A stretch of 64,000 bases of DNA from positions 677,595 through 741,594 of the forward strand of contig OZ246416.1 in the NCBI GenBank assembly GCA_965231095.1, in the 5' to 3' direction. Below, in pieces: positions 1 to 21,009 of the stretch. The number at the start of each line of letters is the position of its first letter. Positions within the stretch are counted from its first letter, which is position 1. This stretch comes from an uncultured Gammaproteobacteria bacterium. Its GTDB lineage: Bacteria > Patescibacteriota > Patescibacteriia > XYB2-FULL-38-15. Below the pieces are notes generated by a model. The model made no database searches. It saw only the letters and a list, made by a program, of their open reading frames with translations, and was not told the DNA's origin. The position numbers and the translations under genes are program-made.

Positions 1-939
1 GGAAAACCACCAATCTTGACCATGATCGCGCGGACCAAAATCATAAGTAAAGTAAGCATTGTCGTTCAGTAAACTAAGCGTCAGCCCAAGACGCATTTTT
101 TTCAAATCTTTTTGGCCGGTATCGTTAGTATCAACTCCATAGATAACTAAATATTTACTGTCAGCCGCCGACAGCCCATCATCAAAGGTGGTTTTCATCT
201 GATCACCCATAAAATTTTCCATCAAATACCCGTCAAAATATTCTCCGAATTCATTAATATCGCTGACGTCTTTTCCGGCATTAAAAATAACCAATTTATT
301 TTTTGTATTCAACTTTTCTATTTTTGAAAAAATATTTTTTGTGGCACTAAGCCATTCCGCGTCACTAATTGCTTCGGGACACCACCACTGTTTCTCCGTC
401 ACCATGTCAAAAATAATTCCGTCGTGCGATGCCTGATCCAAAACGTTTTTGTAAAAAGAAGTTATTAATCCAATCCATTTTTCATTTCTCGGATCCATGG
501 CGTAAATTTCTTCCTGCCCCCATTTTTCGGAAGCCCAACCAAAAGCGCATCTTTCACTATCGGGTTTATGCAAATACATCTCCTCCGTTATTTCTATTGG
601 GTCTTTTTTCCCATAATTTGCCACTGTTGCCAAAAAACTCATCCAGTCGCGGTTATCCCAAACCCAATTGACGGATAATCCTGCCAAAATTTTCGCGTTG
701 GGATTCGCCACTTTTATTTTTTCTGCTTCCTCGGGGGTAAACCAAGCCGTCATAACCAAATCGTAAGGGTGTTTGCCGGCGATTATTTCATCCTTTTTCG
801 CAAGCCAGCTCGCGATCTTTGGAAAATTAAATTCCGCCCCCGTTTCTTGATTAGTGTTTTGCGGCACGCAGCCACTTAAAAAAATAATCGCCAAAATTGC
901 GAATGTTAAAATTGTAAAATTATAATGTTTTATTTTCAT
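1..939 (-). CDS. Lipoprotein, putative glycoside-hydrolase-like (TIM-barrel GHL-type) protein; 3' end truncated by window edge
   Basis: Minus-strand ORF starting ATG at 937-939 (MKIKHYNFTILTFAILAIIFLSGC... lipobox LSGC) with no stop before position 1; not in the ORF track because it runs off the edge. Glycosidase-like call is a weak fold-level impression only. Confidence 0.45.
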   Translation of the reverse strand, partial: MKIKHYNFTILTFAILAIIFLSGCVPQNTNQETGAEFNFPKIASWLAKKDEIIAGKHPYDLVMTAWFTPEEAEKIKVANPNAKILAGLSVNWVWDNRDWMSFLATVANYGKKDPIEITEEMYLHKPDSERCAFGWASEKWGQEEIYAMDPRNEKWIGLITSFYKNVLDQASHDGIIFDMVTEKQWWCPEAISDAEWLSATKNIFSKIEKLNTKNKLVIFNAGKDVSDINEFGEYFDGYLMENFMGDQMKTTFDDGLSAADSKYLVIYGVDTNDTGQKDLKKMRLGLTLSLLNDNAYFTYDFGPRDHGQDWWFS

Positions 940-945
940 TATTAT

Positions 946-1067
946 ATTTCGCCTAACGTTTGCGTATATCTGATGTTTCGAGGAACGTAGCGGAGCAAAA
1001 TATAGGTAAAGGCTCTCTCAAGAGCCGTAACCAGATATACGCTGTTAGCTGATGTATTCCTTTTCTT
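946..1067 (-). repeat. Leader repeat element copy A: conserved flanks around a hairpin (stem 962-972/1032-1042, nested hairpin 1003-1018), ending aacgttaggcgaaat just upstream of the ATG at 939
   Basis: Near-identical flanks (atttcgcctaacgtt ... cagata..cg.tgttagctgatgtatt) to copy B at 15043-15153. Stem gcgtatatctg/cagatatacgc here versus acgagtatctg/cagatactcgt in B, with compensatory substitutions. Confidence 0.6.
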
Positions 1068-1077
1068 TTTATAAATC

Positions 1078-1452
1078 TTAATACCAGAAATCAAATATTC
1101 TTTTAAATACTATTCTATCAACGAAGGCTGCAAGAACAACGCCCAAAGCATACATTACATAATCCAAAGGATCGAAAACTCTCGCCAAGGCATAAATGCC
1201 AAAGTATTGTAGAGTTTCAGACAAAGCACATAGAATAAATACTGCGCTTGCCTTCGTATACCATTTTTGGAATGGTTTATATTTGTCTTCTACAAGCACT
1301 AGGAGCAAGTAATAGCAGAATGGTATTGCAATATCGGCAAAATAGCTATGAAAAAGGATATGTAAAGTTTCATTCGCCCAATCAGCTCCAACTACAAAAA
1401 TAGCAGCGATAATTAGTGATGTTATAACTACAATTGTTTTCTTGTTTTTCAT
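1078..1452 (-). CDS. Small integral membrane protein (4 predicted TM helices), hypothetical
   Basis: 124-aa ORF, hydrophobic segments; flanked by 23-25 bp inverted repeats ctgttagctga[a/t][a/g]tattccttttc at 1043-1065 and 1460-1484. Confidence 0.5.
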   Translation of the reverse strand: MKNKKTIVVITSLIIAAIFVVGADWANETLHILFHSYFADIAIPFCYYLLLVLVEDKYKPFQKWYTKASAVFILCALSETLQYFGIYALARVFDPLDYVMYALGVVLAAFVDRIVFKRIFDFWY

Positions 1453-1576
1453 GTTTTTGAAAAGGAATATTTCAGCTAACAGGTATTATATAAACTAGTT
1501 ATTTTTTTGGCTTAAACCCTCAATTGTGGTATGATTTATAAAGGATTTATATGTATTTTAACAGAATTAAACAAAA

Positions 1577-2053
1577 ATGATAATACTCGGCATTGACCCA
1601 GGATTTGCGAGAACGGGCTACGGAATAATTGAAGAAAAAAATAAAAATATCCGCATGCTTGATTATGGCTGTATCACGACCCCGGCGGGTGTTCTTTTTG
1701 AAAAAAGATTAAAAAAAATCCGCGAAGAAATTAATGATCTGATAAAAAAACATAAGCCGGATATCTGCGCCGTGGAAAAAATATTCTTTTGTAAAAACGC
1801 CAAAACCGCGATTGATGTCGGGCAGGCAAGGGGCGTTGTCATCTTGACTGCCGCAGAAAAAAATCTAAAAATTCTCGAATTTACCCCGCTCCAGGTTAAA
1901 CAATTTATCACGGGCTACGGAAAAGCGGAAAAAGGACAAATCCAAAAAATGGTAAAAATTCTCTTGGGGCTAAAAGAAATCCCCAAACCCGACGATGCGG
2001 CCGATGCCTTGGCGCTCGCCATTGCCGGTTCAAATAATTTTCTTACTAAATAA
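1577..2053 (+). CDS. ruvC: Crossover junction endodeoxyribonuclease RuvC
   Basis: MIILGIDPGFARTGYGIIEE N-terminal RNase H-fold motif, acidic catalytic residues, 158 aa. Confidence 0.9.
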   Translation: MIILGIDPGFARTGYGIIEEKNKNIRMLDYGCITTPAGVLFEKRLKKIREEINDLIKKHKPDICAVEKIFFCKNAKTAIDVGQARGVVILTAAEKNLKILEFTPLQVKQFITGYGKAEKGQIQKMVKILLGLKEIPKPDDAADALALAIAGSNNFLTK

Positions 2054-2056
2054 TCT

Positions 2057-3160
2057 ATGGCCACAAAAATTACTAAAATTTCCGAAAAACAAATCCAAAA
2101 ATTAATTGAAACTTCCCGCGAAGTGATCCGCGACTCGGCGCTTGAAAACGGCGCGATTGTCGCGACCAATACCGACCAAACTTATTATCCCCGCGAAGCG
2201 GCAAATTATCGTTGGGTTTGGCCGCGTGACGCGAGCTATATCTGCGTGGCGGCGGAAATTTTAAAAATTCCCATTCAAGAACCGTTTTTTGACTGGCTCT
2301 ATTCCCGCCCGAAAGATTTTAAAAAGGAAAAACTCCTTTTTGCCAATTATTCCACCAACGGCCAGTTCGGCAGCATGGGTCGCATTCTTCAAATTGACCA
2401 AGCCGGTACGGTTCTCTGGGCAATTTATGAACATTTTAAAAATGATCTGAAGAAAGCGCAAAAATATAAAGATTTGATTGAACAACTTTCTGATGGAATA
2501 GCGGCCAATTGGAATAAAAATTTTTTCCGCCCGCACACGGTTGATCTTTGGGAAGAACCGCACCGCCAAACTTCCACCACCATAGAAAATAATTTTACTT
2601 ACTCGCTCGCGGCCTCGGCCCGCGGCCTTCTTTTAGCCTGCGAAATGCTCCCTAATTGCCTTTGGAAGGAAGCCGCCTCGCAGATGATTGAAAAAATAAA
2701 TGACGCTTATAGCCCGGCCGAAAAATATTTTTTGCGCAGCAAGGGGAAAATTTCCGACAAAAATGTTGACGCCTCGCTTCTCGGTCTCGTTTGGCCGTTT
2801 CAAATCTTTGAGGCTAAAGACGAGAGAATGGCAAATACCATCGCCAAGATGGAAGAAAAAATTGTTATGGACGGCGGCGTGCATCGTTTTGAACAAGATT
2901 ATTTTGACGGGGAGGGCTCGGCCCAAGAAGGCGGCGGCGCTTGGCCGCTATTAAATTTTTGGATGGCCGTTTATTTCGCGAAAAAAGGCGACCGCGAAAA
3001 AGCTCTATCGTATTATAATTGGGTTTTGGAGCGGATTGGAAAATTTAAAGGTTTTATTCCCGAACAAATTTTTGATGATTTCCGCGTCGGCGTTTATCCC
3101 CTTGTCTGGTCCCACGCTATGTTTATTATCGCTTCGCGCGAGCTGGGTTTTATTAAGTAA
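2057..3160 (+). CDS. Glycoside hydrolase family 15 (glucoamylase/glucodextranase-like)
   Basis: WVWPRDASY and LWEE motifs typical of GH15 (alpha/alpha)6 barrel; adjacent to glgA. Confidence 0.7.
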   Translation: MATKITKISEKQIQKLIETSREVIRDSALENGAIVATNTDQTYYPREAANYRWVWPRDASYICVAAEILKIPIQEPFFDWLYSRPKDFKKEKLLFANYSTNGQFGSMGRILQIDQAGTVLWAIYEHFKNDLKKAQKYKDLIEQLSDGIAANWNKNFFRPHTVDLWEEPHRQTSTTIENNFTYSLAASARGLLLACEMLPNCLWKEAASQMIEKINDAYSPAEKYFLRSKGKISDKNVDASLLGLVWPFQIFEAKDERMANTIAKMEEKIVMDGGVHRFEQDYFDGEGSAQEGGGAWPLLNFWMAVYFAKKGDREKALSYYNWVLERIGKFKGFIPEQIFDDFRVGVYPLVWSHAMFIIASRELGFIK

Positions 3161-3172
3161 AGATTAACAATC

Positions 3173-4660
3173 ATGAAGAAAAAGTTAAAAATCGCCGTAG
3201 TCGCCGCGGAGGTCGCGCCTTTTTCCAAAACCGGCGGGCTGGCTGATGTCACGGGCTCTTTGCCCAAGAGTTTCCAAGAAATGGGAAATGATATCGTTGT
3301 GATTACGCCGTTCTACGGAAAACTAATTGATCCCCAAAAACATTCCCTGATTCTTTTAGAGAAAAATTTTTTTATTCGGCTCGGCAAAAACCAAAAGATA
3401 AAAATCTCTCTCTGGCGGGGAGAAATTGAAAAAAATCTGCCGGTTTATTTTATTGAATACAAAAAATATTTTTCCAAAAAACAATCTCTCTACGGCTCGA
3501 CTCATGAAAATTCCCGTTTCGCCTTTTTTAACTACGCTGTTTTGGAAATTTTGAAAAAAATAAATTTCGCCGCCGACATTATTCATTGCCACGACTGGCA
3601 CGCCGGCCTTATTCCGTATTTGTTAAAAAAAGATCCGCTCTACGCGAAAGATGATTTTTTCAAAAAAGCCGCCGCGGTTTTTACCATTCATAATTTAGCT
3701 TTCCAAATGGGGGGAAATTGGTGGAATCTCCCCGCGGAAAAAAGAGATTCCGGAATAGAGCCATTGCCAAAAATCCACACCAAGGCAATGGAAAAAATTA
3801 ATTTTGCCAAACGGGCGATTCTTTTTTCTGACGCGCTAAATACTGTTTCAGAAAAATATGCCGAAGAACTTTTAACTCCGGAATTTGGCCAGGGTTTGGA
3901 AAAAAACTTGCAACATCGCCAAAAAGACTTCTTTGGAATTATAAACGGCATTGACTATTCCGTTTTTAATCCAACCATAGATAAAAATATTTCCGTAAAT
4001 TACGACTGGAATTCTCTCCGTTGCAAGAAAAAAAATAAAGTTTATCTGCAAAAAAAATTAAAGTTGGAACAAAATGTAAATATCCCCCTGATCGGATTGG
4101 CCAGCCGGCTTGCCGAACAGAAGGGATATAATCTTGTCATCGAAAGCCTCGACACTCTTTTAAAACTTCCTTTGCAAATCGTTATCATCGCGAGCGGCGG
4201 CAAAGAAGCAAAAGAATACTCGGATACTTTCAAAAAAATTGCCAAAAAATATCCAAAAAAATTCGCTTTTGTCACTCCTTACACCGAAGAAGAAGCTTCG
4301 AGGGTTTATGCCGGTTCGGACATGCTTTTGATGCCCTCGCGTTTTGAACCATGTGGACTTTCTCCGCTCATCAGTTTGCGTTACGGTTCCATTCCAATTG
4401 TCCACGAAACCGGTGGCCTCGCGGAAACCATCACTGATTTTGATCCCAAAACTGGAAAGGGCAATGGCTTCGTTTTTGAAAATTATACCCGCGAAGAATT
4501 TTTAGCCGCGCTCGTCCGGGCCTTGGAAAATTTTAAATATGAAAAAGTTTGGGAACATTTAGTTTGGCGGGCAATGAAACAATCTTTCTCTTGGGAAATT
4601 CCCGCGGAAAAGTATATCGCACTTTTTAAAAAGGCAATGAGAAATAAGTCGAAAAAATAA
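3173..4660 (+). CDS. glgA: Glycogen synthase (ADP/UDP-glucose alpha-glucan glucosyltransferase, GT5)
   Basis: N-terminal EVAPFSKTGGLADV (KTGGL) motif, 495 aa, GT-B C-terminal signature. Confidence 0.9.
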   Translation: MKKKLKIAVVAAEVAPFSKTGGLADVTGSLPKSFQEMGNDIVVITPFYGKLIDPQKHSLILLEKNFFIRLGKNQKIKISLWRGEIEKNLPVYFIEYKKYFSKKQSLYGSTHENSRFAFFNYAVLEILKKINFAADIIHCHDWHAGLIPYLLKKDPLYAKDDFFKKAAAVFTIHNLAFQMGGNWWNLPAEKRDSGIEPLPKIHTKAMEKINFAKRAILFSDALNTVSEKYAEELLTPEFGQGLEKNLQHRQKDFFGIINGIDYSVFNPTIDKNISVNYDWNSLRCKKKNKVYLQKKLKLEQNVNIPLIGLASRLAEQKGYNLVIESLDTLLKLPLQIVIIASGGKEAKEYSDTFKKIAKKYPKKFAFVTPYTEEEASRVYAGSDMLLMPSRFEPCGLSPLISLRYGSIPIVHETGGLAETITDFDPKTGKGNGFVFENYTREEFLAALVRALENFKYEKVWEHLVWRAMKQSFSWEIPAEKYIALFKKAMRNKSKK

Positions 4661-4700
4661 TTTTTAACTTTTCATTTTTAACTTTTAATTTCGCGAAGCG

Positions 4701-5924
4701 ATGTATTGGGCCAACCTCCTCCACATTTACCAGCCGCCCGGCCAAAAGAAAGAAATTACCAAAAAAGTTGCCGCCGAAAGTTATTGGCGGATTGTTGATA
4801 TTTTAAAAAAACATCCTGAGGTGAAAATTAATTTAAACATCAACGCCTCGCTTACTGAACAGCTACCGGCCGCGGGTTTAAAAAAATTAATTGACGAAAT
4901 TACCGCCCTCGCTCGACGCGGCCAGATTGAATTTACCGGCAGCGCCAAATACCATGTCATCTTGGCGCTTTTGCCCGAATCGGAAATTATCCGCCAAATT
5001 AAACTTAACGACAAAACAAATAAAAAATTCTTCGGCGCGCTCTGGCAACCAACCGGATTTTTTATTCCCGAACTTTGCTACAGCGAAAAAGTAGCGCGCA
5101 CCGTGAAAAAACTCGGATTTAAATGGATTGTTTTAGACGAAGTCGCTTACAACGGAAAATTTAATAAAATAAAATTTGATAAACTTTATAAAATCAAGAA
5201 CGTCGGCCTGCCGGTTTTTTTCCGAAACACAAAAATTTCTAATCTTTTTTTCACGGCTGAAGCAAAAACCACGGCTGACTTTTTTAAAATTTTAAAAGAA
5301 GACGGACGCTCGGAAAAATATCTGCCTACGGCCATGGACGGCGAAAATCTTGGCCATCACCAGAAAGAAATGGACAAACTTTACGCCGATCTTTTGGATA
5401 CTGGAAAATTCGAGGCGATAACTTTTTCCGATTTACTTAAAATATATAAGTCATCACAAGAAATCGCCCCCGCTCCTTCCAGCTGGTCGTCGCGAGAAGA
5501 AGACATAAGAAGAAAAGTCTACTACCCGCTTTGGAAAAATCCAAAAAATGAAATCCATCGGCTACAGTGGCAGCTGACAAACCTCGCCATTAAAATCGTC
5601 AATAAAAACTCGGCCGATACAAATTTTAAAAAATCCCGCGCGCTTCTTGACCGGGCGTTACACTCCGATCAATACTGGTGGGCCTCCGCCAACCCCTGGT
5701 GGTCGGTGGAAATTATAGAAAATGGAGGCAACATGTTGCTTAATTCTTTAAAATCTTTAAAAACCTTATCTCCAAAAATTTTACAAAAAGCAGTTTTACT
5801 TAATAAAAAAATCTCGGCCACGGCGCATAATTGGCAAGATACCGGCCGAGCGAAAAAAATAAAAGAAGCGTATTTAGCCGGAGAACCCTACGAGCGTTAC
5901 TTTGCCGGCAAAGTGATAAAATAG
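4701..5924 (+). CDS. Glycoside hydrolase family 57 protein (alpha-glucan branching enzyme/amylase-like), paralog 1
   Basis: MYWANLLHIYQPP start, TAMDGENLGHH and ALHSDQYWWAS motifs resembling GH57 regions IV/V; tandem with paralog. Confidence 0.65.
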   Translation: MYWANLLHIYQPPGQKKEITKKVAAESYWRIVDILKKHPEVKINLNINASLTEQLPAAGLKKLIDEITALARRGQIEFTGSAKYHVILALLPESEIIRQIKLNDKTNKKFFGALWQPTGFFIPELCYSEKVARTVKKLGFKWIVLDEVAYNGKFNKIKFDKLYKIKNVGLPVFFRNTKISNLFFTAEAKTTADFFKILKEDGRSEKYLPTAMDGENLGHHQKEMDKLYADLLDTGKFEAITFSDLLKIYKSSQEIAPAPSSWSSREEDIRRKVYYPLWKNPKNEIHRLQWQLTNLAIKIVNKNSADTNFKKSRALLDRALHSDQYWWASANPWWSVEIIENGGNMLLNSLKSLKTLSPKILQKAVLLNKKISATAHNWQDTGRAKKIKEAYLAGEPYERYFAGKVIK

Positions 5925-5974
5925 TTTTTAATTGTAATTTTGCCTTTTGAATTTTAAATTTTGAATTTACTATT

Positions 5975-7462
5975 ATGTATTGGGCCAACTTTTTACACAT
6001 TTACCAGCCGCCGAACCAAATGCCGGATATTTTGGAAAGAATTGCTAATGAAAGCTATAGAAAATTATTTCGCGGCTTGCTCGCGAACCCCAAGGCGAAA
6101 TTAACTTTAAACATCAACGCGGGATTGACCGAGCAATTGGACAAGTATGGCTATCACGATATTATCCGCGATATAAAAAAACTCGCGGAGCGCGGCCAGA
6201 TTGAATTTACCGAAAGCGCCAAGTACCATCCTTTTATGCCGCTCACCCCTTGGGAAGAAAACGCGCGGCAAATAAAACTAAATAACGAAACTAATAAATT
6301 TTATTTTGGAAAAATTTATAAACCCCTTGGATTTTTTCCGCCGGAAATGGCCTACAGCCGAAAAATCGCCGATCTTGTTGCCTCGCTGGGCTACCACTTT
6401 ATGGTTGCCGATGAAATTTCCTACAACGGAAAAACCGAACAACTATCTTACGACAAAGCTTATACTATCAAAGGTCTCGGTAATTTTAAAATTTTTTTCC
6501 GTGATCGACGGGTGAGCAATCTCGTAATGTCGGCCATCGTGCGCACGGGAAAATCTCTCCTTGAAGCGGTGGGCGAAGAAAAAAATAAAAACAGATATTT
6601 ACTGACGGCCATGGACGGAGAAACTTTTGGCCATCACCGCCCGGGATTAGATCAGCTGCTTTTTGAAATTTTATCCTCACCAAAATTTAGGAAAATCACT
6701 CTCTCGGAAATCGCCGAACATTTTAAAACCCAAGAAATTGTTGACCCGATTGATTCAACCTGGGCTTCCTCTGAAGAGGACATCGGGCGCGGCGTGCAGT
6801 TTCTTTCCTGGAACGATCCGGAAAATCCCATCCACGCCTGGCAATGGGAATTTACCGGTTTTGTTTTAAAAATCGTGGAAAATTTGGACAAGAAAAAAGC
6901 TTATTACAAAATCGCCCGCGCCAAAATGGATGAAGCGCTCCACTCCTGCCAATATTGGTGGGCGAGCGGAAAACCGTGGTGGTCGCTTGAGATGATTGAG
7001 GGCGGCGCTTGGAAATTGCTTGACGTTCTCTATCAAATTCCGGATGTTTCCCCAAAAAATTTGGAAAAAGGAAAAGATTTTTACGGGCGGATTGTTCTCA
7101 AGGCTTTTGAGTGGCAGCGTACCGGCTACATCAGAAAATTGGCGGGCGAGCGCGGGAAAGAGGTAAAAATTCCTTTCAAAAAACGCTCGCTTCTTGCGGG
7201 AAAACCGGAAGTCTACTATGCTTTCATCAAAACTATGGATAAAGAAATGAGCAAGGCCATAAAAAATAAAGAATTTGAAAGAGCCATTCTCTGGCGCGAT
7301 GCCATTCTAAAAATTGAAAATCAAGACGATATTTACGACGCGGTGCATGCCACCGACCTCCTCCGGATGAGCGTACCGGGCGGAGATTTGGAAAAATTAA
7401 TGGATAAATACAAGACGCAATATAAAAAAATGCGCGGCGGCCAGCCGGAACAGCGCGGCTAA
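5975..7462 (+). CDS. Glycoside hydrolase family 57 protein, paralog 2, with C-terminal extension carrying a UVR-like motif
   Basis: MYWANFLHIYQPP, TAMDGETFGHH, ALHSCQYWWAS; C-terminal KNKEFERAILWRDAILKIE resembles UvrB/UvrC UVR helical hairpin. Confidence 0.65.
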   Translation: MYWANFLHIYQPPNQMPDILERIANESYRKLFRGLLANPKAKLTLNINAGLTEQLDKYGYHDIIRDIKKLAERGQIEFTESAKYHPFMPLTPWEENARQIKLNNETNKFYFGKIYKPLGFFPPEMAYSRKIADLVASLGYHFMVADEISYNGKTEQLSYDKAYTIKGLGNFKIFFRDRRVSNLVMSAIVRTGKSLLEAVGEEKNKNRYLLTAMDGETFGHHRPGLDQLLFEILSSPKFRKITLSEIAEHFKTQEIVDPIDSTWASSEEDIGRGVQFLSWNDPENPIHAWQWEFTGFVLKIVENLDKKKAYYKIARAKMDEALHSCQYWWASGKPWWSLEMIEGGAWKLLDVLYQIPDVSPKNLEKGKDFYGRIVLKAFEWQRTGYIRKLAGERGKEVKIPFKKRSLLAGKPEVYYAFIKTMDKEMSKAIKNKEFERAILWRDAILKIENQDDIYDAVHATDLLRMSVPGGDLEKLMDKYKTQYKKMRGGQPEQRG

Positions 7463-7476
7463 TTAAATTTACTAAA

Positions 7477-8553
7477 ATGAAAAAAATAAATCATAAAATA
7501 TTTTTAGATAACGCCTGGGCGATTGGATTTATGGCTCCGCGGATTAAAAAATATTGGCCCGAAGCCAAAGAACTTCTCTCCTTGAAGATTGATGTCGTCA
7601 AAATATTTCTGGATTATGTCCGCTTTACCCTGCGCTACCGCGTTTTTATAAAAACAGTCTCCGGAAAAATCTTAGAGAAAAAAATAATTTTAAAAGTTGA
7701 ACGGCCGAAAAAATTTTCCTGGCCGCCGCGCATCGGCCGCGTAGAGCGAGATTTTTTGGCCACAAAATTTTTAACAAAACACGGGCTCAAAAATCTGCTT
7801 CCCCGCCCGCTTGAATTTCATAAACCCCTTCATGCCTATCTTTATGAAGAAGTGGGCGGCGTAACTTTAAAAGAATTTATCCGACAGGAAAACTGGCAGG
7901 TGGATTATTTTTTTAAAAACGTCCCCGCGGCCATTCGCGCCCTAAAAAAAATCCACACCATAAAAATAAAACCTCCTTACGCCAACGGCAACCACAAAAA
8001 AATAATTGAAGATGGCATCCGAGAATGGTTTCTTATTATCTCCAAATATTACCCGGCCGGACGAATCCGCGGCAAGGCGATTGTTCTGGCGCTTGAAAAA
8101 ATAGAAAAAAAATATAAAAGTTATTTTTTCAGCCGAGAAAAATATTCTACCACGCACGGCGATTTCCAGGCTGACAACATTATTATCAGCCAGGACGAAA
8201 AAATTAAATTTATTGATCTTTCAGACAGTAAATTTTTCAATCCCTTAGACGACTTGGCTTCTTTTCTCGTCCAGGCTGAACTGCACTTCAAATATGTCCA
8301 GCCAAAAAATCATAAAACTCTGACGGAAAAATTAAAAAAAATAACTTACGCCGCATATTTTGGCAAAAAAATTAAAAAAGAAAATGAATTGCAAATAGAT
8401 TTCTTCGCCGCCAAAGACGTTCTGCGCATTATCACTTTTGTTTCTTTCACTCAGCGCTCTTGGCAGACAATCCAAGACCACAGTAAAATGATGGATGAAC
8501 TTTTAACTTTTACTGAAGAAAAAATTTCTGAAATTTTGAAAAAATACCTATGA
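7477..8553 (+). CDS. Aminoglycoside-phosphotransferase-fold (protein-kinase-like) phosphotransferase; possibly a sugar kinase (maltokinase-like) given context
   Basis: Brenner motif HGDFQADNIII and downstream IDLSDS; overlaps next gene by 4 bp (ATGA). Confidence 0.5.
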   Translation: MKKINHKIFLDNAWAIGFMAPRIKKYWPEAKELLSLKIDVVKIFLDYVRFTLRYRVFIKTVSGKILEKKIILKVERPKKFSWPPRIGRVERDFLATKFLTKHGLKNLLPRPLEFHKPLHAYLYEEVGGVTLKEFIRQENWQVDYFFKNVPAAIRALKKIHTIKIKPPYANGNHKKIIEDGIREWFLIISKYYPAGRIRGKAIVLALEKIEKKYKSYFFSREKYSTTHGDFQADNIIISQDEKIKFIDLSDSKFFNPLDDLASFLVQAELHFKYVQPKNHKTLTEKLKKITYAAYFGKKIKKENELQIDFFAAKDVLRIITFVSFTQRSWQTIQDHSKMMDELLTFTEEKISEILKKYL

Positions 8554-9440
8554 AATACATTGATCTCCACCTCCACTCCACTTTTTCCGAAGGCGACCTC
8601 TCGCCGCGGCAAATCATTGAACGCGCCAAAAAAGAAAATTTCGCCGTAATTTCTTTGGCTGACCACAACACCATCGACGGTGTCGCTGCCGTGATTCAAG
8701 AAGGGGCGAAAGAAAAAATTGAGGTCGTCCCTGGCGTGGAAATTTACACGGAATTCTCCGGAAAACGTTTACATCTTTTGGGATATAATTTTAATTTGGA
8801 GGATAAAAAATTAAATGACTTACTCTGGCAATCGCAAATCCACCATTTAGAATGGGCGAAAAAATCTTTAAAAAAAATGGCGGAAATTGGGCTTCAGATT
8901 GATTTTCCGGATTTAGAAAAATTAAAATCAAAGTATTGCGGCTTTCGGCACCTAAAAACCATCGTGGAAAAATATCCCGATAACATCCAAAGAATGATCG
9001 CGGATATCCGTCCGCAATTTGGCAAACCAACCTTGTTTGAATTTATAAATTTTTATTTTGCCGAAGGAAAATTCGCCCATATTCCGGAAATAAATATGCC
9101 AATCGACACGACGCTGGCGATAAAAATTATCTCCGAGGCCGGCGGCCTTCCGGTTCTTGCCCATCCGGGCCAACAACTCTCCTGGGGCGATGATCATTTA
9201 ATTTCCGAATTAAAAAATGCCGGCCTCCGCGGTTTGGAGGTTTTGTCTCCATATCACAATTGGCACCAAACCGAACATTACCAAAAATTGGCCAATGATT
9301 TAGACCTCGTGATTACCGGCGGCTCGGATTTTCACGGCGACCTTGTGGACTTTTCCCTCAAACACCAATTTGTCAAAAGCGCCTGGGATTATTTCCGCGT
9401 CCCCTGCGCCGTTTACGAAAATTTAAAAAGATATTTATAA
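8550..9440 (+). CDS. PHP-domain (polymerase/histidinol-phosphatase family) metal-dependent phosphoesterase
   Basis: N-terminal IDLHLHSTFSEGD and LADHNTIDG His-rich PHP motifs. Confidence 0.8.
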   Translation: MKYIDLHLHSTFSEGDLSPRQIIERAKKENFAVISLADHNTIDGVAAVIQEGAKEKIEVVPGVEIYTEFSGKRLHLLGYNFNLEDKKLNDLLWQSQIHHLEWAKKSLKKMAEIGLQIDFPDLEKLKSKYCGFRHLKTIVEKYPDNIQRMIADIRPQFGKPTLFEFINFYFAEGKFAHIPEINMPIDTTLAIKIISEAGGLPVLAHPGQQLSWGDDHLISELKNAGLRGLEVLSPYHNWHQTEHYQKLANDLDLVITGGSDFHGDLVDFSLKHQFVKSAWDYFRVPCAVYENLKRYL

Positions 9441-9453
9441 AATTTCTCAGGAT

Positions 9454-9527
9454 CGGCTTCAAAAAAGAAGTCGTTTTTTTTAATTAAAAAAGCTGCGCAA
9501 CTTTTTCTTGTCGCGCAGCGGTTTTTG
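9454..9527. terminator. Two rho-independent terminator hairpins (cggcttc/gaagtcg + T9; gctgcgc/gcgcagc with T-runs on both strands) separating PHP gene from the GC-rich island
   Basis: Inverted repeats followed by T tracts read directly from sequence. Confidence 0.6.
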
Positions 9528-9542
9528 TATCCTCCTCGAGAT

Positions 9543-10121
9543 CTATCCCGTCTTCAACCGACCGAGATAGAAGATCTTCGGTTCTCTCCAAAAATCTTCT
9601 CGCGCCGCCCCGATGTTCAAGGTCCTCCCCCTTAGTAACGGATAGTACAGGCCGAACTCCTCCTTGGAGATCGGCGTACCCAGGGCAACCACGGGAATTT
9701 CCCACGAAAAAACTGAGTCCCAGCGGGCGAGGCGCAGAAGATCAGAGAGCGTTCCAGGAAGAAGGTTCATGCCCCTGAGGCGCGCTTCGATTTCCAGGAC
9801 GGTCCAATGGCCCGGAACATTCTGCACTCTAAGTCGTTCAAGCTTCTCGCCTCGCTCGTCCGTTTCCTCCGGCTTCCAGGGGAAGTCTTCCTCTCGAAGA
9901 CCATCCGCGAGCGCCAGATTGCTCGTTATGAGCGCTCCACTAAACGTAGGTATGTCGCATGGCCTGAGGCTGTTGAACCAAACCGCGTCCAAAACCCGCC
10001 AGGGATCTTCGAGGAAGAACTGGAAAAGGTCGTGGTGCATCTGCCCCACCCCGACCATCTCGTGAAACTTTTCCATCTGCTCCATGCTCGGCTTTACGAA
10101 CTGCCCGGTTCCTCTTATCAT
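9543..10121 (-). CDS. Hypothetical protein encoded in GC-rich island 1 (192 aa from the AAGGAG-preceded ATG; longer TTG-initiated frame to 10247 possible)
   Basis: ~58% GC versus ~40% surroundings; SD AAGGAG 8 nt upstream of ATG at 10119-10121; consensus promoter TTGACA-17-TAAAAT at ~10238-10205 on minus strand. Confidence 0.5.
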   Translation of the reverse strand: MIRGTGQFVKPSMEQMEKFHEMVGVGQMHHDLFQFFLEDPWRVLDAVWFNSLRPCDIPTFSGALITSNLALADGLREEDFPWKPEETDERGEKLERLRVQNVPGHWTVLEIEARLRGMNLLPGTLSDLLRLARWDSVFSWEIPVVALGTPISKEEFGLYYPLLRGRTLNIGAAREDFWREPKIFYLGRLKTG

Positions 10122-10587
10122 CGTTGCCGCTCCTTTGACCCGCCAGTAGTCAGACCGCGACAGAGCCCCATGCTCCGACTTCGGCTGATACGCTGGGCGA
10201 GACAGTTGAATTTTAATCTCCTTCTTGTCCGCTGTCAACCGCCGCAAAGGGGTTTGCCAAAAGGCCTATTTTTTGTTAAAATAAATACAATTTATGAGCT
10301 TAATCGCCAATTACTAAGCAATGTCCTTAGCCCACAAAACCCAATCCCCGCAGAACTGGAGAGAAAGACCTTCTCGCCGGATTTTTAATAAATTAAAACT
10401 TGATAAAGTTAAAGAATTTTCCGCGCGGCTTCTGGGTTCTATAAAAAATAAATGGTCAAAAAATCTGTCGGCTGCTTCTCCAAATTCATCCACGGCGCGA
10501 CCAACTAATGCTCCTCTTACTCCACCCCTCCCGCCTTCCGCCGACCCAAAAAACTTTTTTTCTAAAATATTTCAAACTATTATTTTT

Positions 10588-13434: not shown

Positions 13435-13500
13435 TTAAAACAGGCACTTGATTACATAGCTTGAAAAACTTTTTAATTAAAATTAAATAAAAAAATTAAT

Positions 13501-13575
13501 AGTTTATATAATACCCGTTAGCTGAAATATTAAAAAATTCTTTTCGGCCTTTGCGGGCATTTAATCGGGGCAAAT
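13501..13575 (-). repeat. Inverted-repeat arm (left) of the UvrA-like cassette; contains gttagctgaaatatt core shared with repeats at 1043-1065, 1460-1484 and 15002-15071
   Basis: 13514-13575 is the near-exact reverse complement of 15002-15071 (perfect 16-bp tttaatcggggcaaat/atttgccccgattaaa at the gene boundaries). Confidence 0.7.
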
Positions 13576-13606
13576 TTATTTTTAAAGATTTAGAATTCGG
13601 AAAATT

Positions 13607-14995
13607 ATGAAATACATAACAGTAAAAAATATCACCAAGAATAATCTGAAACGATTTTCAGTTAAAATACCATTGCAAAAACTGGTCGCCATTGTTGGTC
13701 CGAGCGGAAGCGGCAAGTCTACGTTGGTTCATGAAGTGTTATATAACAATTCAATCAAAAAAGAGTGGGATATAAAAAATCTACCGAAAATTGTTGATAT
13801 TCTTGAACAAAAAGTAATTCTTCCAAGGGATTCAAAGTTGAGTCTAGGTGAATTTAACTTTGATAAATTAAAAAAGAAATTATCCGCAATTCATAAGGAA
13901 GATTTGTTGATTGTTGATGAACCCTGTGCTGGATTTTGTGAGAAAGAGCGAAAGACAATTTTGAAAATGTTAAAAGATAAAGTTAAGCAGGGATATTCAA
14001 TAATTGCAGTTGAACATAATAAGGAAATTATTGCTAATGCTGATTATGTAATTGAGCTTGGTCCCGGGGCTGGACGATATGGCGGAAAATTGATTTTTGA
14101 GGGAAATCTAAATGAATTTAAAAAGTCTGGCACAATTACGGCTGAACATGTTTTTAAGGCAAACAAAGACGCGGTAAAGCAAGGAACTTTTGAGAAAGGC
14201 AAAGAAGTTACAATTTCAAAAATATCTGCTGGAAATTTTAAAAATTACAGTTTTACATTTCCGCTCATAAGTATAGTTTGTTTAACTGGCTGTTCTGGTA
14301 GCGGAAAATCAACCTTATTGGATGTCGCTTATCGTGCTTTATTTAAAGGAAAAAATGCTTGGAAAATTAGATTAAAAACGGTTAACGTTAATGGAAAAAC
14401 TAATGTACGTAGGTCGTTTATTGTTCCACAATCTTCGATTGGAGATCATCCATCAAGCACGCTCGCGACCTATGCAAAAGTTTGGGATAACATAAGGGAG
14501 ATTTTTGCGAATGAAAAACTGGCAAAGCAGTTAAGATTAACGAAATCAGATTTCATTATTTCAAAAAGTATTTTGGAATCAAAAAGTGATTTTTCAAAGG
14601 ATGTTTTAAAAGTTTGCTATCAAAGGAAAAATATCAAAGAAGTTGCAAATCTTACGATTGATGAGGCATTAGAAATATTTGAAACTGACACTCTAATAGT
14701 GAGAAAATTGAAATTTTTACAGGAAGTAGGCTTAGGCTATTTGGTGCTTGGACAAAAATCAGGTTCTTTAAGTGGTGGAGAAGCTCAGCGAGTAAGAGTT
14801 GCAAAAATTCTTTCAAAAAAACTTGGCGATAGGTCTGTCTATATTTTTGATACTCCAACCAGAGGATTACATCTCAAAGATATTCCAGTACTAATAGATG
14901 TTTTTAGAAAAATTATAGACAAAAATAATACAATTTTAATAGCAGATAACAGAGAGGAAGTATTTCATTATTGTGACTATCGGATAAATCTTTAA
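13607..14995 (+). CDS. Minimal UvrA-like tandem ABC ATPase (two NBDs, no zinc-finger/UvrB-binding/DNA-binding insertions)
   Basis: Walker A GPSGSGKSTLVHEVLY and CLTGCSGSGKSTLLDVAY (UvrA-style), degenerate signature LSLGE, Walker B LLIVDEP...VEHN...GPGAG; signature LSGGEAQRVRVA and VYIFDTPTRGLHLKD (UvrA C-terminus-like, Glu to Thr); ~31% GC. Confidence 0.7.
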   Translation: MKYITVKNITKNNLKRFSVKIPLQKLVAIVGPSGSGKSTLVHEVLYNNSIKKEWDIKNLPKIVDILEQKVILPRDSKLSLGEFNFDKLKKKLSAIHKEDLLIVDEPCAGFCEKERKTILKMLKDKVKQGYSIIAVEHNKEIIANADYVIELGPGAGRYGGKLIFEGNLNEFKKSGTITAEHVFKANKDAVKQGTFEKGKEVTISKISAGNFKNYSFTFPLISIVCLTGCSGSGKSTLLDVAYRALFKGKNAWKIRLKTVNVNGKTNVRRSFIVPQSSIGDHPSSTLATYAKVWDNIREIFANEKLAKQLRLTKSDFIISKSILESKSDFSKDVLKVCYQRKNIKEVANLTIDEALEIFETDTLIVRKLKFLQEVGLGYLVLGQKSGSLSGGEAQRVRVAKILSKKLGDRSVYIFDTPTRGLHLKDIPVLIDVFRKIIDKNNTILIADNREEVFHYCDYRINL

Positions 14996-15001
14996 AAATG
15001 C

Positions 15002-15153
15002 ATTTGCCCCGATTAAATCTTTTGCCTTTAGGTAAAAGCCGAAAAGAATTTTTTAATACATCAGCTAACAACGAGTATCTGGTTTCGACTTTTTACAAAA
15101 GTCTCCACCCAAATGCTACGCACTTCAGATACTCGTAACGTTAGGCGAAATGA
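15002..15153 (+). repeat. Right inverted-repeat arm of the UvrA-like cassette fused to leader repeat copy B (hairpin stem 15072-15081/15127-15136, nested hairpin gacttttgtaaaaagtc) ending ...aacgttaggcgaaATG
   Basis: Matches 13514-13575 in inverted orientation and copy A (946-1067) in flanks and stem register. Confidence 0.65.
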
Positions 15154-15815
15154 TTCATTTATCACCCACCATGTCAAACACTATCCTTCAAGAAAAAGAC
15201 AGCGTGATTTACGCCAATTGTATGGCGGAATTGAAGGATCGTCTAAACAAAATAGAGTCTTCGCTGGATAAAAATTTTTCATTAGATATTTTTTTACTAG
15301 AATTTATTTGTCTACAATTCAGAAAAATATGCGAACTATTCGCTTTCGGAACTTTGATAGCTAGTAAAGATCTTTACAGACAAGTCAGAAAAGATTTCAG
15401 TAATGATTGGAACTTTGCTAGAATATTAACAACTGTAGAAAAAATTAATCCACGATACTTTCCAAAACCATTAAAATATGAGGGCAACAAAGCCTTTGCC
15501 GTCGTAACAAATGACTTTCTACTTCAAAAAAATATTATAGATATTTACGATGAATGTTCCGACATGATAAATGCCCAAAATCATTTCAAAGATTTGAAAA
15601 ATTTTTATCCAAATAGTGATGAGAAAAGAGATATTTGGCGTAAAAAATTCACAGAATGGAAAGAAAAATTTATTAAATTATTTGACTGCCATACAATTGG
15701 CATAAAGACTGATTTATATACAAAAGTTTTTATCACCTTCATGTATATAAATAATCCGAGCAAAGATATCAATGTTATCGCAGCGGATGTCATTCCAAAG
15801 CCAAAAGATAAATAA
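15150..15815 (+). CDS. Hypothetical protein, AT-rich, partner of UvrA-like ATPase (alternative start 15171)
   Basis: 221-aa ORF directly after repeat copy B; no recognisable motif; composition matches upstream AT-rich gene. Confidence 0.45.
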   Translation: MIHLSPTMSNTILQEKDSVIYANCMAELKDRLNKIESSLDKNFSLDIFLLEFICLQFRKICELFAFGTLIASKDLYRQVRKDFSNDWNFARILTTVEKINPRYFPKPLKYEGNKAFAVVTNDFLLQKNIIDIYDECSDMINAQNHFKDLKNFYPNSDEKRDIWRKKFTEWKEKFIKLFDCHTIGIKTDLYTKVFITFMYINNPSKDINVIAADVIPKPKDK

Positions 15816-15847
15816 ATCACATCTCCTCTTCTCGGACGTTAAATAAA

Positions 15848-16705
15848 GTGGCCAAAATGGAAATCGCTATCCCTTCGCCAGAAAATCTAGAAAAACTAAA
15901 ATCCGCTATCCGAAATGATGGGCCGGAAAATTTTCATGTTCTGGCTGACTTTGATCAAACTTTGACCAAAGCTTTTATCGGCGGGCGGTTCGTGCCATCG
16001 CTTATTTCCGTCTTGCGCGATGGAAGTTATCTAACCGCCGACTACGCAAAAAAATCACATGAACTTTTTAACAAATATCACCCGATAGAAATTGATACTT
16101 CTCTCCCGCCCGAAGTTAAAGACCGGGCAATGGTCCAATGGTGGAAGGAACATTTTGAAATTCTTTTCCAGGCCGGGCTCAAGAGAGGAGACGTTGAATC
16201 AATTGTTAATTCCGGAAAAATAAAATTGCGCGAGGGGCTTTGCGACTTTATCCATTTTCTCGGCAAAAGAAAAATCCCGCTTGTCATCATGTCTTCAAGC
16301 GGCTTGGGCGGCGACGCGCTTGGAATGCTTTTGGAAAAAGAGGGGTGTTCCAACGGTAATACCTTTTTTATCACGAACACTCTTATCTGGGACGACGAAG
16401 GAAAAGCTGTCGGCGTCAAAGAGCCGATAATTCACTCAATGAACAAGGACGAAACCATCCTTAAAAACTTTCCCGCTTTTCAAAAAATAAAAGACAGGAA
16501 AAATGTTTTGCTTTTAGGTAATACAGTTGAAGATGTTGGCATGGCCGCCGGAGTTCCTTACAAAAACCTTTTGAAAATTGGATTTTTAAATGAAAAGGTG
16601 GAAGAAAATCTGGAAGAATTTAAAAAAACTTTTGACGTTGTCTTGACGGGCGATCCGGGAATGGAATATATAAATAATTTATTAAAAGAAATTTTTTCGC
16701 ACTAA
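15848..16705 (+). CDS. HAD-superfamily pyrimidine 5'-nucleotidase-like hydrolase
   Basis: DFDQT (DxDxT) motif I near N-terminus, 285 aa, UMPH-1-like arrangement. Confidence 0.65.
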   Translation: MAKMEIAIPSPENLEKLKSAIRNDGPENFHVLADFDQTLTKAFIGGRFVPSLISVLRDGSYLTADYAKKSHELFNKYHPIEIDTSLPPEVKDRAMVQWWKEHFEILFQAGLKRGDVESIVNSGKIKLREGLCDFIHFLGKRKIPLVIMSSSGLGGDALGMLLEKEGCSNGNTFFITNTLIWDDEGKAVGVKEPIIHSMNKDETILKNFPAFQKIKDRKNVLLLGNTVEDVGMAAGVPYKNLLKIGFLNEKVEENLEEFKKTFDVVLTGDPGMEYINNLLKEIFSH

Positions 16706-16708
16706 CCT

Positions 16709-17188
16709 ATGTTAAGCTCATCTCTAAAAACCGGTTTGAGTTTTGGCCTGACCTCCGGCGTGATCACCACTCTCGGACTTTTGGTGGGCCTTGCGGCGGG
16801 CACTTCCTCGCGCCTCGCCGTCCTCGGGGGAATTTTGACGATTGCCTTGGCCGACGCTTTTTCCGACGCGCTCGGAATCCATATGTCCGAAGAATCGGAA
16901 AACGTACATACGCCCCGCGAAATTTGGCAATCAACTTTCGCCGCCTTCTTCACCAAACTTTTCTTTGCCTTAACTTTTGCCGTCCCGGTTTTATTTTTGG
17001 ATTTAAAACTCGCAGTCATAATTTCCGTAATCTGGGGATTTTTAGTTCTTACTATCACTAATTTCCTTATCGCCAAAATGGAAAAAATCGCCCAATGGAA
17101 AGTGATTGGCGAACATCTCCTAATCGCCGCGGTCGTAGTCGTCGCGACTTATTTTTTGGGCGGCCTCATTGCCCAACTCTTCGCCTAA
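16709..17188 (+). CDS. Small polytopic membrane protein (VIT1/CCC1-like glycine-rich TM helices), hypothetical
   Basis: GLSFGLTSGVITTLGLLVGL and further TM segments; family assignment weak. Confidence 0.35.
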   Translation: MLSSSLKTGLSFGLTSGVITTLGLLVGLAAGTSSRLAVLGGILTIALADAFSDALGIHMSEESENVHTPREIWQSTFAAFFTKLFFALTFAVPVLFLDLKLAVIISVIWGFLVLTITNFLIAKMEKIAQWKVIGEHLLIAAVVVVATYFLGGLIAQLFA

Positions 17189-17206
17189 AATAATCTTCAT
17201 AAACAA

Positions 17207-17237
17207 AACGCCCACCAACTTCGGTGGACGTTTTTTA
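17207..17237. terminator. Bidirectional terminator between convergent genes
   Basis: aacgcccacc-aacttc-ggtggacgtttttt hairpin with T-run. Confidence 0.5.
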
Positions 17238-17274
17238 TTTTCTAATTACTAATCACTATTTACCAGTTACTCAA

Positions 17275-18423: not shown

Positions 18424-18712
18424 AAAAATGTTTTAGTTTTATTTGTTGGTTGTATGTTTTGCACAATCAATCTTTTGTTTTATATTTTTAAAATATAGTA
18501 ATAACAAGCGTTTTGATTTTTGTGGATAGTTTTTGAAAAACGTTTTTGTTTAAAGAAAATTTTCATCTAGGCGGCTGTGGAAGAAAAATTTTTAGTTGTG
18601 GAAGTTTGGTGGAGAAAATTTGTGCCTTGGAGTTTTTTGGTTTTTTATCCCCATCTTAACAATTTTCTTCCACACAATTTTCCACCGAGTTTTGCACAGC
18701 CACTTTTTATTT
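18424..18712. promoter_or_regulatory. oriC: Candidate oriC: AT-rich dnaA-dnaN intergenic region with at least 6 DnaA-box-like 9-mers
   Basis: TGTGGATAG 18521-29, CTGTGGAAG 18575-83, TTGTGGAAG 18596-604, TTATCCCCA 18645-53, TTCCACACA 18668-76, TTTCCACCG 18680-88 (consensus TTATCCACA). Confidence 0.55.
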
Positions 18713-20074: not shown

Positions 20075-20231
20075 AAGGAGAAGAGTTATGATCTGCTGTC
20101 ACCTTTTCTAATATATCACAGATAGAGAAGTGATAAAATGGGGTGTAAAGAGGTAAAAAGTGAATAAGGTGTTGATGAGTTGGGGAAAACTATTTTAAAA
20201 TTTCTTAAGAAAAAATTAAAATCAGATTTTT

Positions 20232-20486
20232 CTATTTTAAGGGGTCAAAACCACCCTTGGAAAATGGATTGCAGCGCATGATTCGCCAAAGAGCCTTCGC
20301 TCCTCCGCGGAAAACACCATATTTTTCTATTGCCGCATAGCCAAATTCAGAGCAAGTCGGGTGGAAACGGCAAAAACCGTGGGGAAAAAGGGAGGAAAAG
20401 AAGCCGTGATCAAAAGAAAGGGTTTTTTGATAAATTTTAATGATTTTTAGGACGGTTTTTCTGGCGATAAGGGTAGTAAAAATCAT
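20232..20486 (-). CDS. yidD: Membrane protein insertion efficiency factor YidD
   Basis: CRFHPTCSEFGYAA...RIMRCNPFSKGGFDP motif. Confidence 0.8.
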   Translation of the reverse strand: MIFTTLIARKTVLKIIKIYQKTLSFDHGFFSSLFPHGFCRFHPTCSEFGYAAIEKYGVFRGGAKALWRIMRCNPFSKGGFDPLK

Positions 20487-20827: not shown

Positions 20828-20842
20828 GATTTTGGGAAAATT

Positions 20843-20983: not shown

Positions 20984-21009
20984 AAATTTTTTTATTTATA
21001 ATTAATTTT

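Follow-up and report, generated by a model that had tools for sequence, protein, structure and literature searches.

Integrons are the chief means of gene capture underlying multidrug resistance, and their origin from Xer-type recombinases is an open question. The attC sites (59-base elements) of integron cassettes have an inverse core, RYYYAAC, on the 5′ side and a core, GTTRRRY, on the 3′ side (PMC5027507). Integron integrases are defined by the IntI insertion, which has been called essential for integron function (Smyshlyaev et al. 2021, PMC8138268). Here we analyze two hairpin elements, A and B, located in a stretch of 64,000 nucleotides (hereafter the window) of contig OZ246416.1 (positions 677,595 to 741,594; assembly GCA_965231095.1). 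The source is named as an uncultured Gammaproteobacteria bacterium and is placed by GTDB in the Patescibacteriota, which are also known as the candidate phyla radiation (CPR). These elements are very probably attC-type recombination sites that close two integron-like cassettes.

Xer-type recombinases bind dif sites of 28 bp, in which two 11-bp arms flank a spacer of 6–8 bp; the E. coli dif site is GGTGCGCATAA-TGTATA-TTATGTTAAAT. Integrative mobile elements exploiting Xer (IMEX) are phages or islands that depend on this machinery, and CTX phage integrates at dif as a folded single strand. The cassettes described here likewise combine a Xer-type recombinase in relatives, a dif-like site and a strand that would fold into a hairpin. 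However, IMEX are not arrays of one-gene cassettes that each carry their own hairpin. The pdif modules of Acinetobacter also place single accessory genes between inversely oriented Xer-type sites, but these sites are 28-bp duplexes without covarying stems or loops (PMC7399989).

Clusters of attC sites lacking integron integrases (CALIN; PMC4889954, PMC9024848) resemble the window in having attC sites and cassettes with no integrase, which is absent from all 64 kb. They differ in that an attI-like site precedes each attC in the window. Archaeal integrons (Ghaly et al. 2022, PMC9668308) display the same architecture in nonclassical hosts, including small-genome DPANN symbionts, and have attC sites common to distant taxa. 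That survey covered Archaea only and makes no mention of CPR or Patescibacteria. The "Cand" recombinases of candidate phyla resemble the recombinase found in relatives of the window in size (∼270 aa) and in their SAM-like and catalytic domains, and the paper that defined them describes no link to attC cassette arrays (PMC8138268). We found no literature linking integrons or attC sites to CPR or Patescibacteria in a search that was incomplete and is no proof of novelty.

Like integron attC sites, elements A and B are imperfect palindromes that have an inverse core (..TAAC) and a core (GTTRRRY), R and L boxes, a variable loop and a length within 68–180 nt. As with integron cassettes, the sites lie 3′ of a usually promoterless open reading frame (ORF), imply a G|TT crossover and occur in arrays with unrelated accessory cargo, and they are more alike within than between lineages. 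In contrast, canonical attC sites have extrahelical bases in the L box (PMC5027507), whereas that box is fully paired in the family described here. This family also has an asymmetric spacer (1 versus 3–5 nt), an R arm of 14–22 nt (76 nt in cassette 2) and a conserved 2-nt mismatch (GAAAT versus GATGT). Unlike in class 1 and Vibrio cholerae integrons, the recombinase of the relatives lacks the IntI insertion and the host belongs to the CPR. The element is of a known kind, although it is an unusual and apparently undescribed variant. The parts of the two sites, which we call attC A and attC B, are as follows.

946..1067, minus strand: attC A, read from the sequence and found by the geometry scan described below
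1065–1044, minus strand: R″ arm of attC A, extended, GAAAAGGAATACATCAGCTAAC, followed by A (1043)
1042–1032, minus strand: L″ stem of attC A, GCGTATATCTG
1031–973, minus strand: loop of attC A with nested hairpin
972–962, minus strand: L′ stem of attC A, CAGATATACGC, followed by AAAC (961–958)
957–946, minus strand: R′ core of attC A, GTTAGGC, and GAAAT
15043..15151, plus strand: attC B, read from the sequence, found by the geometry scan and matched by the covariance model at 15069–15140
up to 15069, plus strand: R″ arm of attC B, ending in AATACATCAGCTAAC, followed by A (15070)
15071–15081, plus strand: L″ stem of attC B, ACGAGTATCTG, followed by the loop (15082–15125)
15126–15136, plus strand: L′ stem of attC B, CAGATACTCGT, followed by AAC (15137–15139)
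15140–15151, plus strand: R′ core of attC B, GTTAGGC, and GAAAT

Both elements are hairpins of ∼110 nt with common flanks (ACATCAGCTAACA / AACGTTAGGCGAAAT), and the flanks ATACATCAGCTAACA and AACGTTAGGCGAAAT do not differ between the copies. An earlier note on this DNA had described two flanked hairpin copies, and these are real, with all four junctions where the note put them. The 11-bp stems of A and B differ at three paired positions, and all three changes are compensated. The note was right that this marks a selected structure, but it had counted two such positions. It had also called the loops unrelated, whereas they are homologous: Each opens with GGTT(A/T)CG(G/A)CT, and the nested hairpins (GGCTCTTGAGAGAGCC versus GACTTTTTACAAAAGTC) both fit a single family consensus from other genomes, GGCTTTTTACAAAAGCC. 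Sites nearly identical to attC A are present in three other CPR genomes (L005, L002 and L014; L numbers denote loci examined outside the window).

The R′ core GTTAGGC fits GTTRRRY fully, and the R″ sequence AGCTAAC fits RYYYAAC at six of seven positions, with G at position 2. Every site has an asymmetric internal loop between its R and L boxes, with 1 nt on one side versus 3–5 nt on the other. By analogy with integrons, this loop could stand in for extrahelical bases in telling the strands apart. The core TCAGCTAACA, with up to one mismatch, has four matches in the window, which is not above chance since 16 of 100 shuffles also reach four. The significance of the repeats lies in their combined architecture and not in the short cores alone.

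One genome from each of 185,579 species was scanned with the flanks only (ATCAGCTAACA-N55–85-AACGTTAGGC), which returned 13 loci, against an estimated handful of chance matches that would not be expected to fold. All 13 have a TAAC/GTTA box around an inner stem of 9–14 bp whose sequence varies by lineage. Their hosts are Saccharibacteria, Peribacteria, other CPR, Desulfosporosinus, Alkaliphilus, Vallitaleaceae, Syntrophomonadaceae, Gammaproteobacteria and Latescibacterota. A second scan, which used geometry (TAAC, 0–3 nt, a stem of at least 9 bp, a loop, the complementary stem, a spacer 2–4 nt longer than the first, GTTA), found 30 sites in 213 kb of the window plus loci outside it, compared to none in each of 20 shuffles. 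A scan of metagenomes with the 5′ half of the CPR-type attC gave two matches (L015 and L016), both without attC structure.

Covariation was assessed with 29 distinct sites, each trimmed to the same frame: 12 nt, TAAC and A, the first 11-nt stem strand, GAAA replacing the loop, the second 11-nt stem strand, the last 3 spacer nt, GTTA and 8 nt. Standard pairs occupy 96.6% of the pair cells, a value that is partly by construction since most of the sites were chosen by a stem criterion. Ten of the 11 stem pairs change on both sides, with 97 double-change cells in total. None of 500 shuffles reaches these values, and only 20%–37% of cells remain paired when the partner is slid by 1–3 columns. All 13 sites picked by their flanks alone carry the stem. 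TAAC and GTTA are invariant in all 29 sites. Across the scans, total site length ranges from 68 to 184 nt.

Two loci carry long runs of co-oriented sites that are cassette arrays. In Desulfosporosinus (L009), 11 sites occur within 8 kb at intervals of 0.5–1.3 kb, and L011 has eight. By inspection, the 10–14 nt that follow GTTA of site n repeat, in reverse complement, the R″ arm of site n + 1. This junction rule is kept by all 10 consecutive pairs in L009 and also holds in L011, L004, L007, L017 and L022. This pattern is the signature of integron cassettes, in which crossover at G|TT leaves the terminal portion of each attC at the 5′ end of the cassette to which it belongs.

Several assemblies end at such sites. 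These include one end of L001 (position 10413) and contigs of L002, L005, L010, L012 and L014, with several genome matches lying at contig ends. A Logan contig that encodes an identical copy of a 124-aa protein encoded next to attC A ends a few bases into the L″ stem of this site. The practical effect is that these repeats break metagenome assemblies at cassette boundaries.

The earlier note had favored structured RNAs, such as 5′ untranslated region regulators or RNase processing sites, and terminators belong to the same group of explanations. It correctly reported that both copies end 0–6 nt before an ATG (939 on the minus strand, 15150 on the plus strand). In addition, the 5′ end of a transcript would pair with the R″ region over 22–76 nt, like an rRNA processing stem, and the fold z-scores are −1.8 to −3.7. 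However, both strands of A and B form hairpins when folded as single-stranded DNA. No Rfam family matches: Only rRNA and tRNAs appear at gathering thresholds, positions 850–1650 yield noise at E values up to 10, and Rfam contains no attC family. There is no T tract of the terminator type 3′ of either hairpin. The genes downstream differ everywhere, and the family spans phyla with unrelated neighbor genes. The element instead tracks the 3′ end of the upstream cargo, and arrays obey the cassette junction rule. The hairpin closes the cassette upstream of it, the next ATG lies past the cassette boundary, and a function as structured RNA is highly unlikely.

The cassettes in the window have a common layout. 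In the direction of the cargo, each locus consists of a P site (AAAAAAATWAMTAGTTTATATAATACCY), a tail beginning with GTTAGCTGAAATATT, one gene, an R″ arm ending in AATACATCAGCTAAC, A, an 11-nt stem, a 44–59-nt loop that contains a nested hairpin, the other half of the stem, AAC or AAAC, and GTTAGGCGAAAT, with the ATG of the next gene 0–6 nt farther on. Locus 1 runs from 1508 to 946 on the minus strand and locus 2 from 13489 to 15151 on the plus strand. Each attC lies 3′ of its ORF in the same orientation. A repeat search over the window recovered every repeat of the earlier note plus two more, I1 and I5.

1459..1480, minus strand: 5′ end of cassette 1, G|TTAGCTGAAATATTCCTTTTC, the complement of the R″ arm in attC A (I25)
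1479 to 957, minus strand: cassette 1, 523 bp
13517..13592, plus strand: 5′ end of cassette 2, G|TTAGCTGAAATATT..., covered by I3 and I5
13518 to 15140, plus strand: cassette 2, 1623 bp
14985..15042, plus strand: distal part of the R″ arm of cassette 2 (I5), overlapping the stop codon of the cargo gene
1020–1058 / 15055–15093: repeat I2
1042–1065 / 1459–1482: repeat I25, 24 nt, 92% identity
13517–13552 / 15034–15069: repeat I3, 36 nt, 92% identity
13559–13592 / 14985–15018: repeat I5, 34 nt, 94% identity, new
1466–1508 / 13489–13531: repeat I1, 43 nt, 93% identity, new

The inverted-repeat pairs around the gene for the 124-aa protein (I25) and around the UvrA-like cassette (I3) are as the earlier note had seen them. 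Each cassette begins with one of these "inverted-repeat cores", and each pair represents the two halves of an attC R box, which an integron-type G|TT crossover splits upon insertion of a circular cassette. The junction rule holds in the window also, where the tail GTTAGCTGAAATATT(CCTTTTC) pairs with (GAAAAGG)AATACATCAGCTAAC of the attC of the same cassette. Cassette 2 has an end-to-end inverted repeat of ∼76 nt (13517–13592 / 14985–15069), far beyond the size of an attC R box, which may be a giant attC stem or may reflect pairing of mRNA ends.

Inverted repeats of 24 nt and ∼76 nt that bracket single genes, together with the duplication of the flanking P sites (I1), could also be produced by transposons that carry cargo. 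The earlier note had suggested ends similar to those of miniature inverted-repeat transposable elements, and it came near the truth in viewing the repeats as ends of small cargo-carrying elements. However, they are not transposon ends with target-site duplications: The inverted-repeat pairs show no such duplication, and there is no transposase. Moreover, the ends are asymmetric, with a bare tail at one side versus a tail, a hairpin and a second GTTA arm at the other. A segmental duplication of the two loci is contradicted by their unrelated cargo and by the presence of related sites in at least 20 genomes beyond that of the window. Transposon ends or a segmental duplication are therefore exceedingly improbable explanations.

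Observed cargo is AT-rich and accessory or defense-like, and the two cargo regions of the window have a GC content of 30%–35%, compared to 41%–50% in their surroundings. The best match of the 462-aa ATPase of cassette 2 is mad3 of the methylation-associated defense system (MADS) (PADLOC, E = 9.2e-39), and its gene has a GC content of 31%–34%. For the cargo of cassette 1 this value is 31%–36%, versus 41%–50% for its flanks. Beside attC sites in other CPR loci lie genes for PDC-S41, an N6/N4 methylase, NsnA, a type II restriction enzyme and Fic. The cargo genes and their neighbors in the window are as follows.

1078..1452, minus strand: cargo of cassette 1, ORF for a 124-aa membrane protein (Pfam VanZ at E = 0.0038, under the cutoff)
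13607..14995, plus strand: cargo of cassette 2, 462 aa, UvrA-like, containing a pair of ABC-type ATPase domains (Pfam ABC_tran and AAA families)
15150..15815, plus strand: AT-rich ORF of 221 aa (GC 29%–35%) that starts within the R′ tail of attC B
15815..15848, plus strand: possible internally deleted attC (ACATCTCC...GGACGTTAAAT) after the gene for the 221-aa protein, where GC content jumps from 30% to 43%
1..939, minus strand: glycoside hydrolase (GH)-like lipoprotein gene, cut by the window edge, starting 6 nt past the R′ tail of attC A

Neither the 124-aa nor the 221-aa protein belongs to a convincing family in Pfam or PADLOC, and the latter has no match at all in these two collections. 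The 221-aa ORF may represent another cassette, or it may be the gene that attC B originally served. The sequence after it is a weak candidate for an internally deleted attC: Its local alignment to attC B scores 30, compared to 21 ± 4 for shuffles, a difference of ∼2 standard deviations that is not significant.

Each cassette is preceded by a P site of 28 nt, and the window junction reads AGTTTATATAA-TACCYG|TTAGCTGAAAT. P1 resembles the recombinase-side junctions of six CPR loci (L005, L017, L021, L022, L027 and L028). By eye, these junctions have a dif-like shape, in which an arm ending in ATAA is followed by a spacer of 6–7 nt and an arm of the form TTA...AAAT.

1481..1508, minus strand: P1, left half of an attI/dif-like site, AAAAAAATAACTAGTTTATATAA-TACCTG, then |TTAGCTGAAAT (I1)
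13489..13516, plus strand: P2, second left half, AAAAAAATTAATAGTTTATATAA-TACCCG (I1), downstream from PBP1A
L021, recombinase side: GTGCGTATAA-TAACGAG|TTATCTAATAT
L027, recombinase side: CTTCGTATAA-TTACGAG|TTATACGAAAT
L028, recombinase side: ATGCGTATAA-AGAGGAG|TTGTATGAAAT
L017, recombinase side: CTCCGCATAA-GAACGAG|TTATATTCAAT
L005, recombinase side: TTCAGGATAA-TTGGGAG|TTAGCTGAAAT

Since this shape matches that of a Xer dif site, P plus tail is read as a putative double-stranded, attI-like partner, and TTAGGCGAAAT after each attC would be its original right arm. P contains TATAAT, and a sigma-70 scan calls no promoter and finds no −35 element. A plain sigma-70 promoter is less favored, because the attI-like reading better explains the conservation of P. 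P was also considered as a degraded attC, and this idea was rejected because the sequences that precede the two cassettes align locally with attC A and B no better than shuffles do. A metagenome scan for P (TTTATATAATACCNGTTAGNNGAAAT) gave no matches.

The likely enzyme for these sites, as judged by linkage in relatives, is a tyrosine recombinase of ∼270 aa. In two loci found via attC (L005 and L007), its gene is divergent from the first cassette and lies 50–115 nt from the first G|TTA junction. Seven other loci were chosen by protein similarity or synteny only (L017, L019, L021, L022, L026, L027 and L028), and all seven have sites of attC geometry divergent from the recombinase, mostly 0.5–3 kb away. 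Thus, nine CPR loci show this arrangement. In five of them (L005, L017, L021, L026 and L028), the tail after G|TT at the recombinase-side junction can pair with the R″ arm of the first attC. The divergent, adjacent intI gene of a complete integron is absent from the 64-kb window, and the relatives have a divergent, adjacent recombinase gene. The eight non-CPR loci show no recombinase within the 8 kb or less available for each.

The L005 recombinase (278 aa) is closest to integron integrases by score and reaches 205 bits against archaeal XerA. Its best solved relative is VchIntIA (2A3V; E = 7e-42), to which it aligns over residues 6–180 and 242–318. More than 7,800 homologs fall below E = 1e-20; the best 120 are 266–295 aa long, and the named ones among them come from CPR lineages. 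This recombinase corresponds to the Xer-related "Cand" subgroup of Smyshlyaev et al. (PMC8138268), which is assumed to replace Xer in chromosome dimer resolution. A conserved motif, TTCGCATAA/T, was observed 0–60 nt upstream of the first cassette junction in L007, L019, L021, L022 and L026 (upstream of the recombinase) and near position 13640 of L024, and it is missing from the window. It may be an accessory recombinase-binding site or a true dif arm.

The same cassettes could be moved through double-stranded sites, as in pdif modules and classical IMEX, in which case each attC would be two inverted dif-like half-sites and its hairpin incidental. Several features fit this explanation. The recombinase-side junctions look like dif (..GCGTATAA-7 nt-TTAT..AAT), the enzyme has the size of a Xer recombinase and is classed with Xer-related enzymes (PMC8138268), and its gene is in operon position with ruvC in L026 and L024. 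In addition, the L stems have a conserved G at column 20 and a conserved T at column 23. On the other hand, the sequence of the L box varies freely, yet 10 of 11 pairs remain complementary, a pattern expected if a folded strand is recognized by its structure and not if proteins bind two duplex sites. In every site the spacer is asymmetric, which is meaningful only in a folded strand, and the loops are long as well as variable. For these reasons, use of the sites as duplexes is unlikely, and recombination through a folded attC strand is preferred.

If these sites work as integron attC sites do, then recombination would proceed as follows. The free cassette would be circular, and its attC would form a long imperfect palindrome (R″-L″-loop-L′-R′). 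One strand would fold so that the R box (TAAC/GTTA plus its extension) and the 11-bp L box are set apart by the asymmetric internal loop of 1 nt versus 3–5 nt. A tyrosine recombinase would then cut GTTA between G and TT and link the hairpin with a double-stranded partner composed of left arm-spacer-G|TTA...GAAAT, which in the window would be AGTTTATATAA-TACCYG|TTAGGCGAAAT. After insertion, the tail TTAGCTGAAAT... would be located at the 5′ end of the cassette beside the left arm, and the remaining attC would be located at its 3′ end, joined to the old right arm TTAGGCGAAAT. The predicted empty site is AGTTTATATAATACCYG|TTAGGCGAAAT, and the predicted junction of the circular cassette is ...CGCAAACG|TTAGCTGAAATATT.

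Close relatives hold different cargo at the same two chromosomal positions. Their PBP1A proteins are 82%–87% identical to that of the window, and the ruvC...PBP1A block is in the same order. In L026, the recombinase gene is directly upstream of ruvC, followed by an attI-like junction and cassettes beyond. The corresponding gene in L024 (1–652) has an in-frame stop and is called as two ORFs. The similarity of the window to L026 and L024 starts exactly at the ruvC ATG, and P1 lies 68 nt from this start, where relatives carry the recombinase gene. These positions suggest that locus 1 is the ancestral platform from which the recombinase gene has gone. Because of the stop in L024 and the missing gene in the window, the recombinase seems to be dispensable in this lineage. 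At the position of locus 2, downstream from PBP1A, gene content differs in every relative examined.

L026: nothing at this position
L025, L029 and L024: DUF559 element
L024: in addition, Fic and further genes, together with two attC sites
L029: HAD gene, then a truncated attC
L030: ORF of 157 aa

Cassette traffic would be expected to leave just such a footprint, with cargo that varies while its position stays fixed. The DUF559 (Vsr-like endonuclease) gene lies immediately after PBP1A (L024, 13094–13700; L025, 12181–12930; L029, 4108–4720). This insert is followed by a second copy of the PBP1A 3′ end (GTGACGGTGTTGTAA) and flanked by GC-rich palindromes (CCCTCTACCC..GGGGAGAGGG). It looks like a separate small mobile element that is absent from the window.

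The two P copies are 93% identical and flank the 12-kb ruvC...PBP1A core segment in inverted orientation. The GH-like gene next to attC A shares 82% identity with GHL15 of L024, a gene that is located beyond the array downstream from PBP1A. As judged from sequence, this position would fit an inversion of the 12-kb segment between the P sites.

The assignment of A and B as attC-type sites draws on their architecture and covariation, on the arrays and the junction rule, on cargo that varies at fixed loci and on recombinase linkage in relatives. Several findings weigh against it. The L box is a perfect duplex without extrahelical bases, and the 76-nt repeat of cassette 2 and the two copies of P exceed what a standard attC needs. 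A covariance model built from the 29 loop-trimmed sites recovers the two attC sites of the window at marginal E values of 0.03 and 0.05, a weakness that can be attributed to the long natural loops. With this model, P2 plus tail has E = 0.39, P1 plus tail has E = 1.9 (rank 5, after a chance match at 31483–31502), and no further site in the window stands out. The window contains two loci 12 kb apart with one intact attC each, compared to the two or more attC sites per cluster by which IntegronFinder 2 defines a CALIN (PMC9024848); under the customary thresholds, the window counts neither as a CALIN nor as a complete integron. A clean empty site, P|TTAGGCGAAAT, was not found in five close relatives, and no excision product or circular junction was seen. 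The 64-kb window has no tyrosine recombinase (best tblastn E ∼ 0.04 with 120 family members), so its cassettes may now be fixed in place. Finally, the L005 recombinase scores 217.6 bits against the NCBIfam integron integrase model TIGR02249, whose cutoff is 265. It also has 18 aa where IntIA has 61 (residues 181–241) and thus lacks the IntI-specific insertion. The CPR loci have an integron layout with a recombinase that fails the definition of an integron integrase.

A broader proposal, to which we assign about even chances, is that CPR bacteria have a widespread integron-like platform. A short "Cand" Xer-type recombinase without the IntI insertion, encoded beside a dif-like attI, would capture single-gene, often anti-phage defense cassettes that end in attC hairpins without extrahelical bases. 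If this hypothesis is true, then the platform would be a living intermediate between Xer/dif dimer resolution and the integron. The window would represent a decayed state, in which the recombinase has been lost and two attI-like sites hold one cassette each; these sites may still invert the 12-kb ruvC–PBP1A segment. If the CPR recombinase works on these hairpins, then folded-strand recombination would need neither the IntI insertion nor extrahelical bases, and the evolution of the integron from Xer/dif could be tested in a natural system. The smallest bacterial genomes would then also have a route by which genes, largely for defense, flow into them. Software that finds integrons by the IntI insertion would miss the whole class, and surveys of this type would report such loci at most as integrase-less clusters.

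The presence of 16S rRNA, tRNAs, dnaA and dnaN indicates that the window is chromosomal, and the source names of its PBP1A homologs point to a Patescibacteria-group (CPR) bacterium. At 31518–33288 and 33358–34241, the 16S rRNA gene is bracketed by a 28-nt, 96% identical inverted repeat, which is a processing stem, and is followed by tRNA genes; no 23S rRNA is present in the window. An ORF of 3118 aa (51999–61355) consists largely of 81-nt (27-aa) repeats, and another of the same type (62900–64000) leaves the end of the window. Plus-strand genes (1577–17188) meet minus-strand genes (17275–26687, with dnaN and dnaA first) at 17188–17275, only 2 kb from locus 2, and this convergence is an unusual setting for dnaA.

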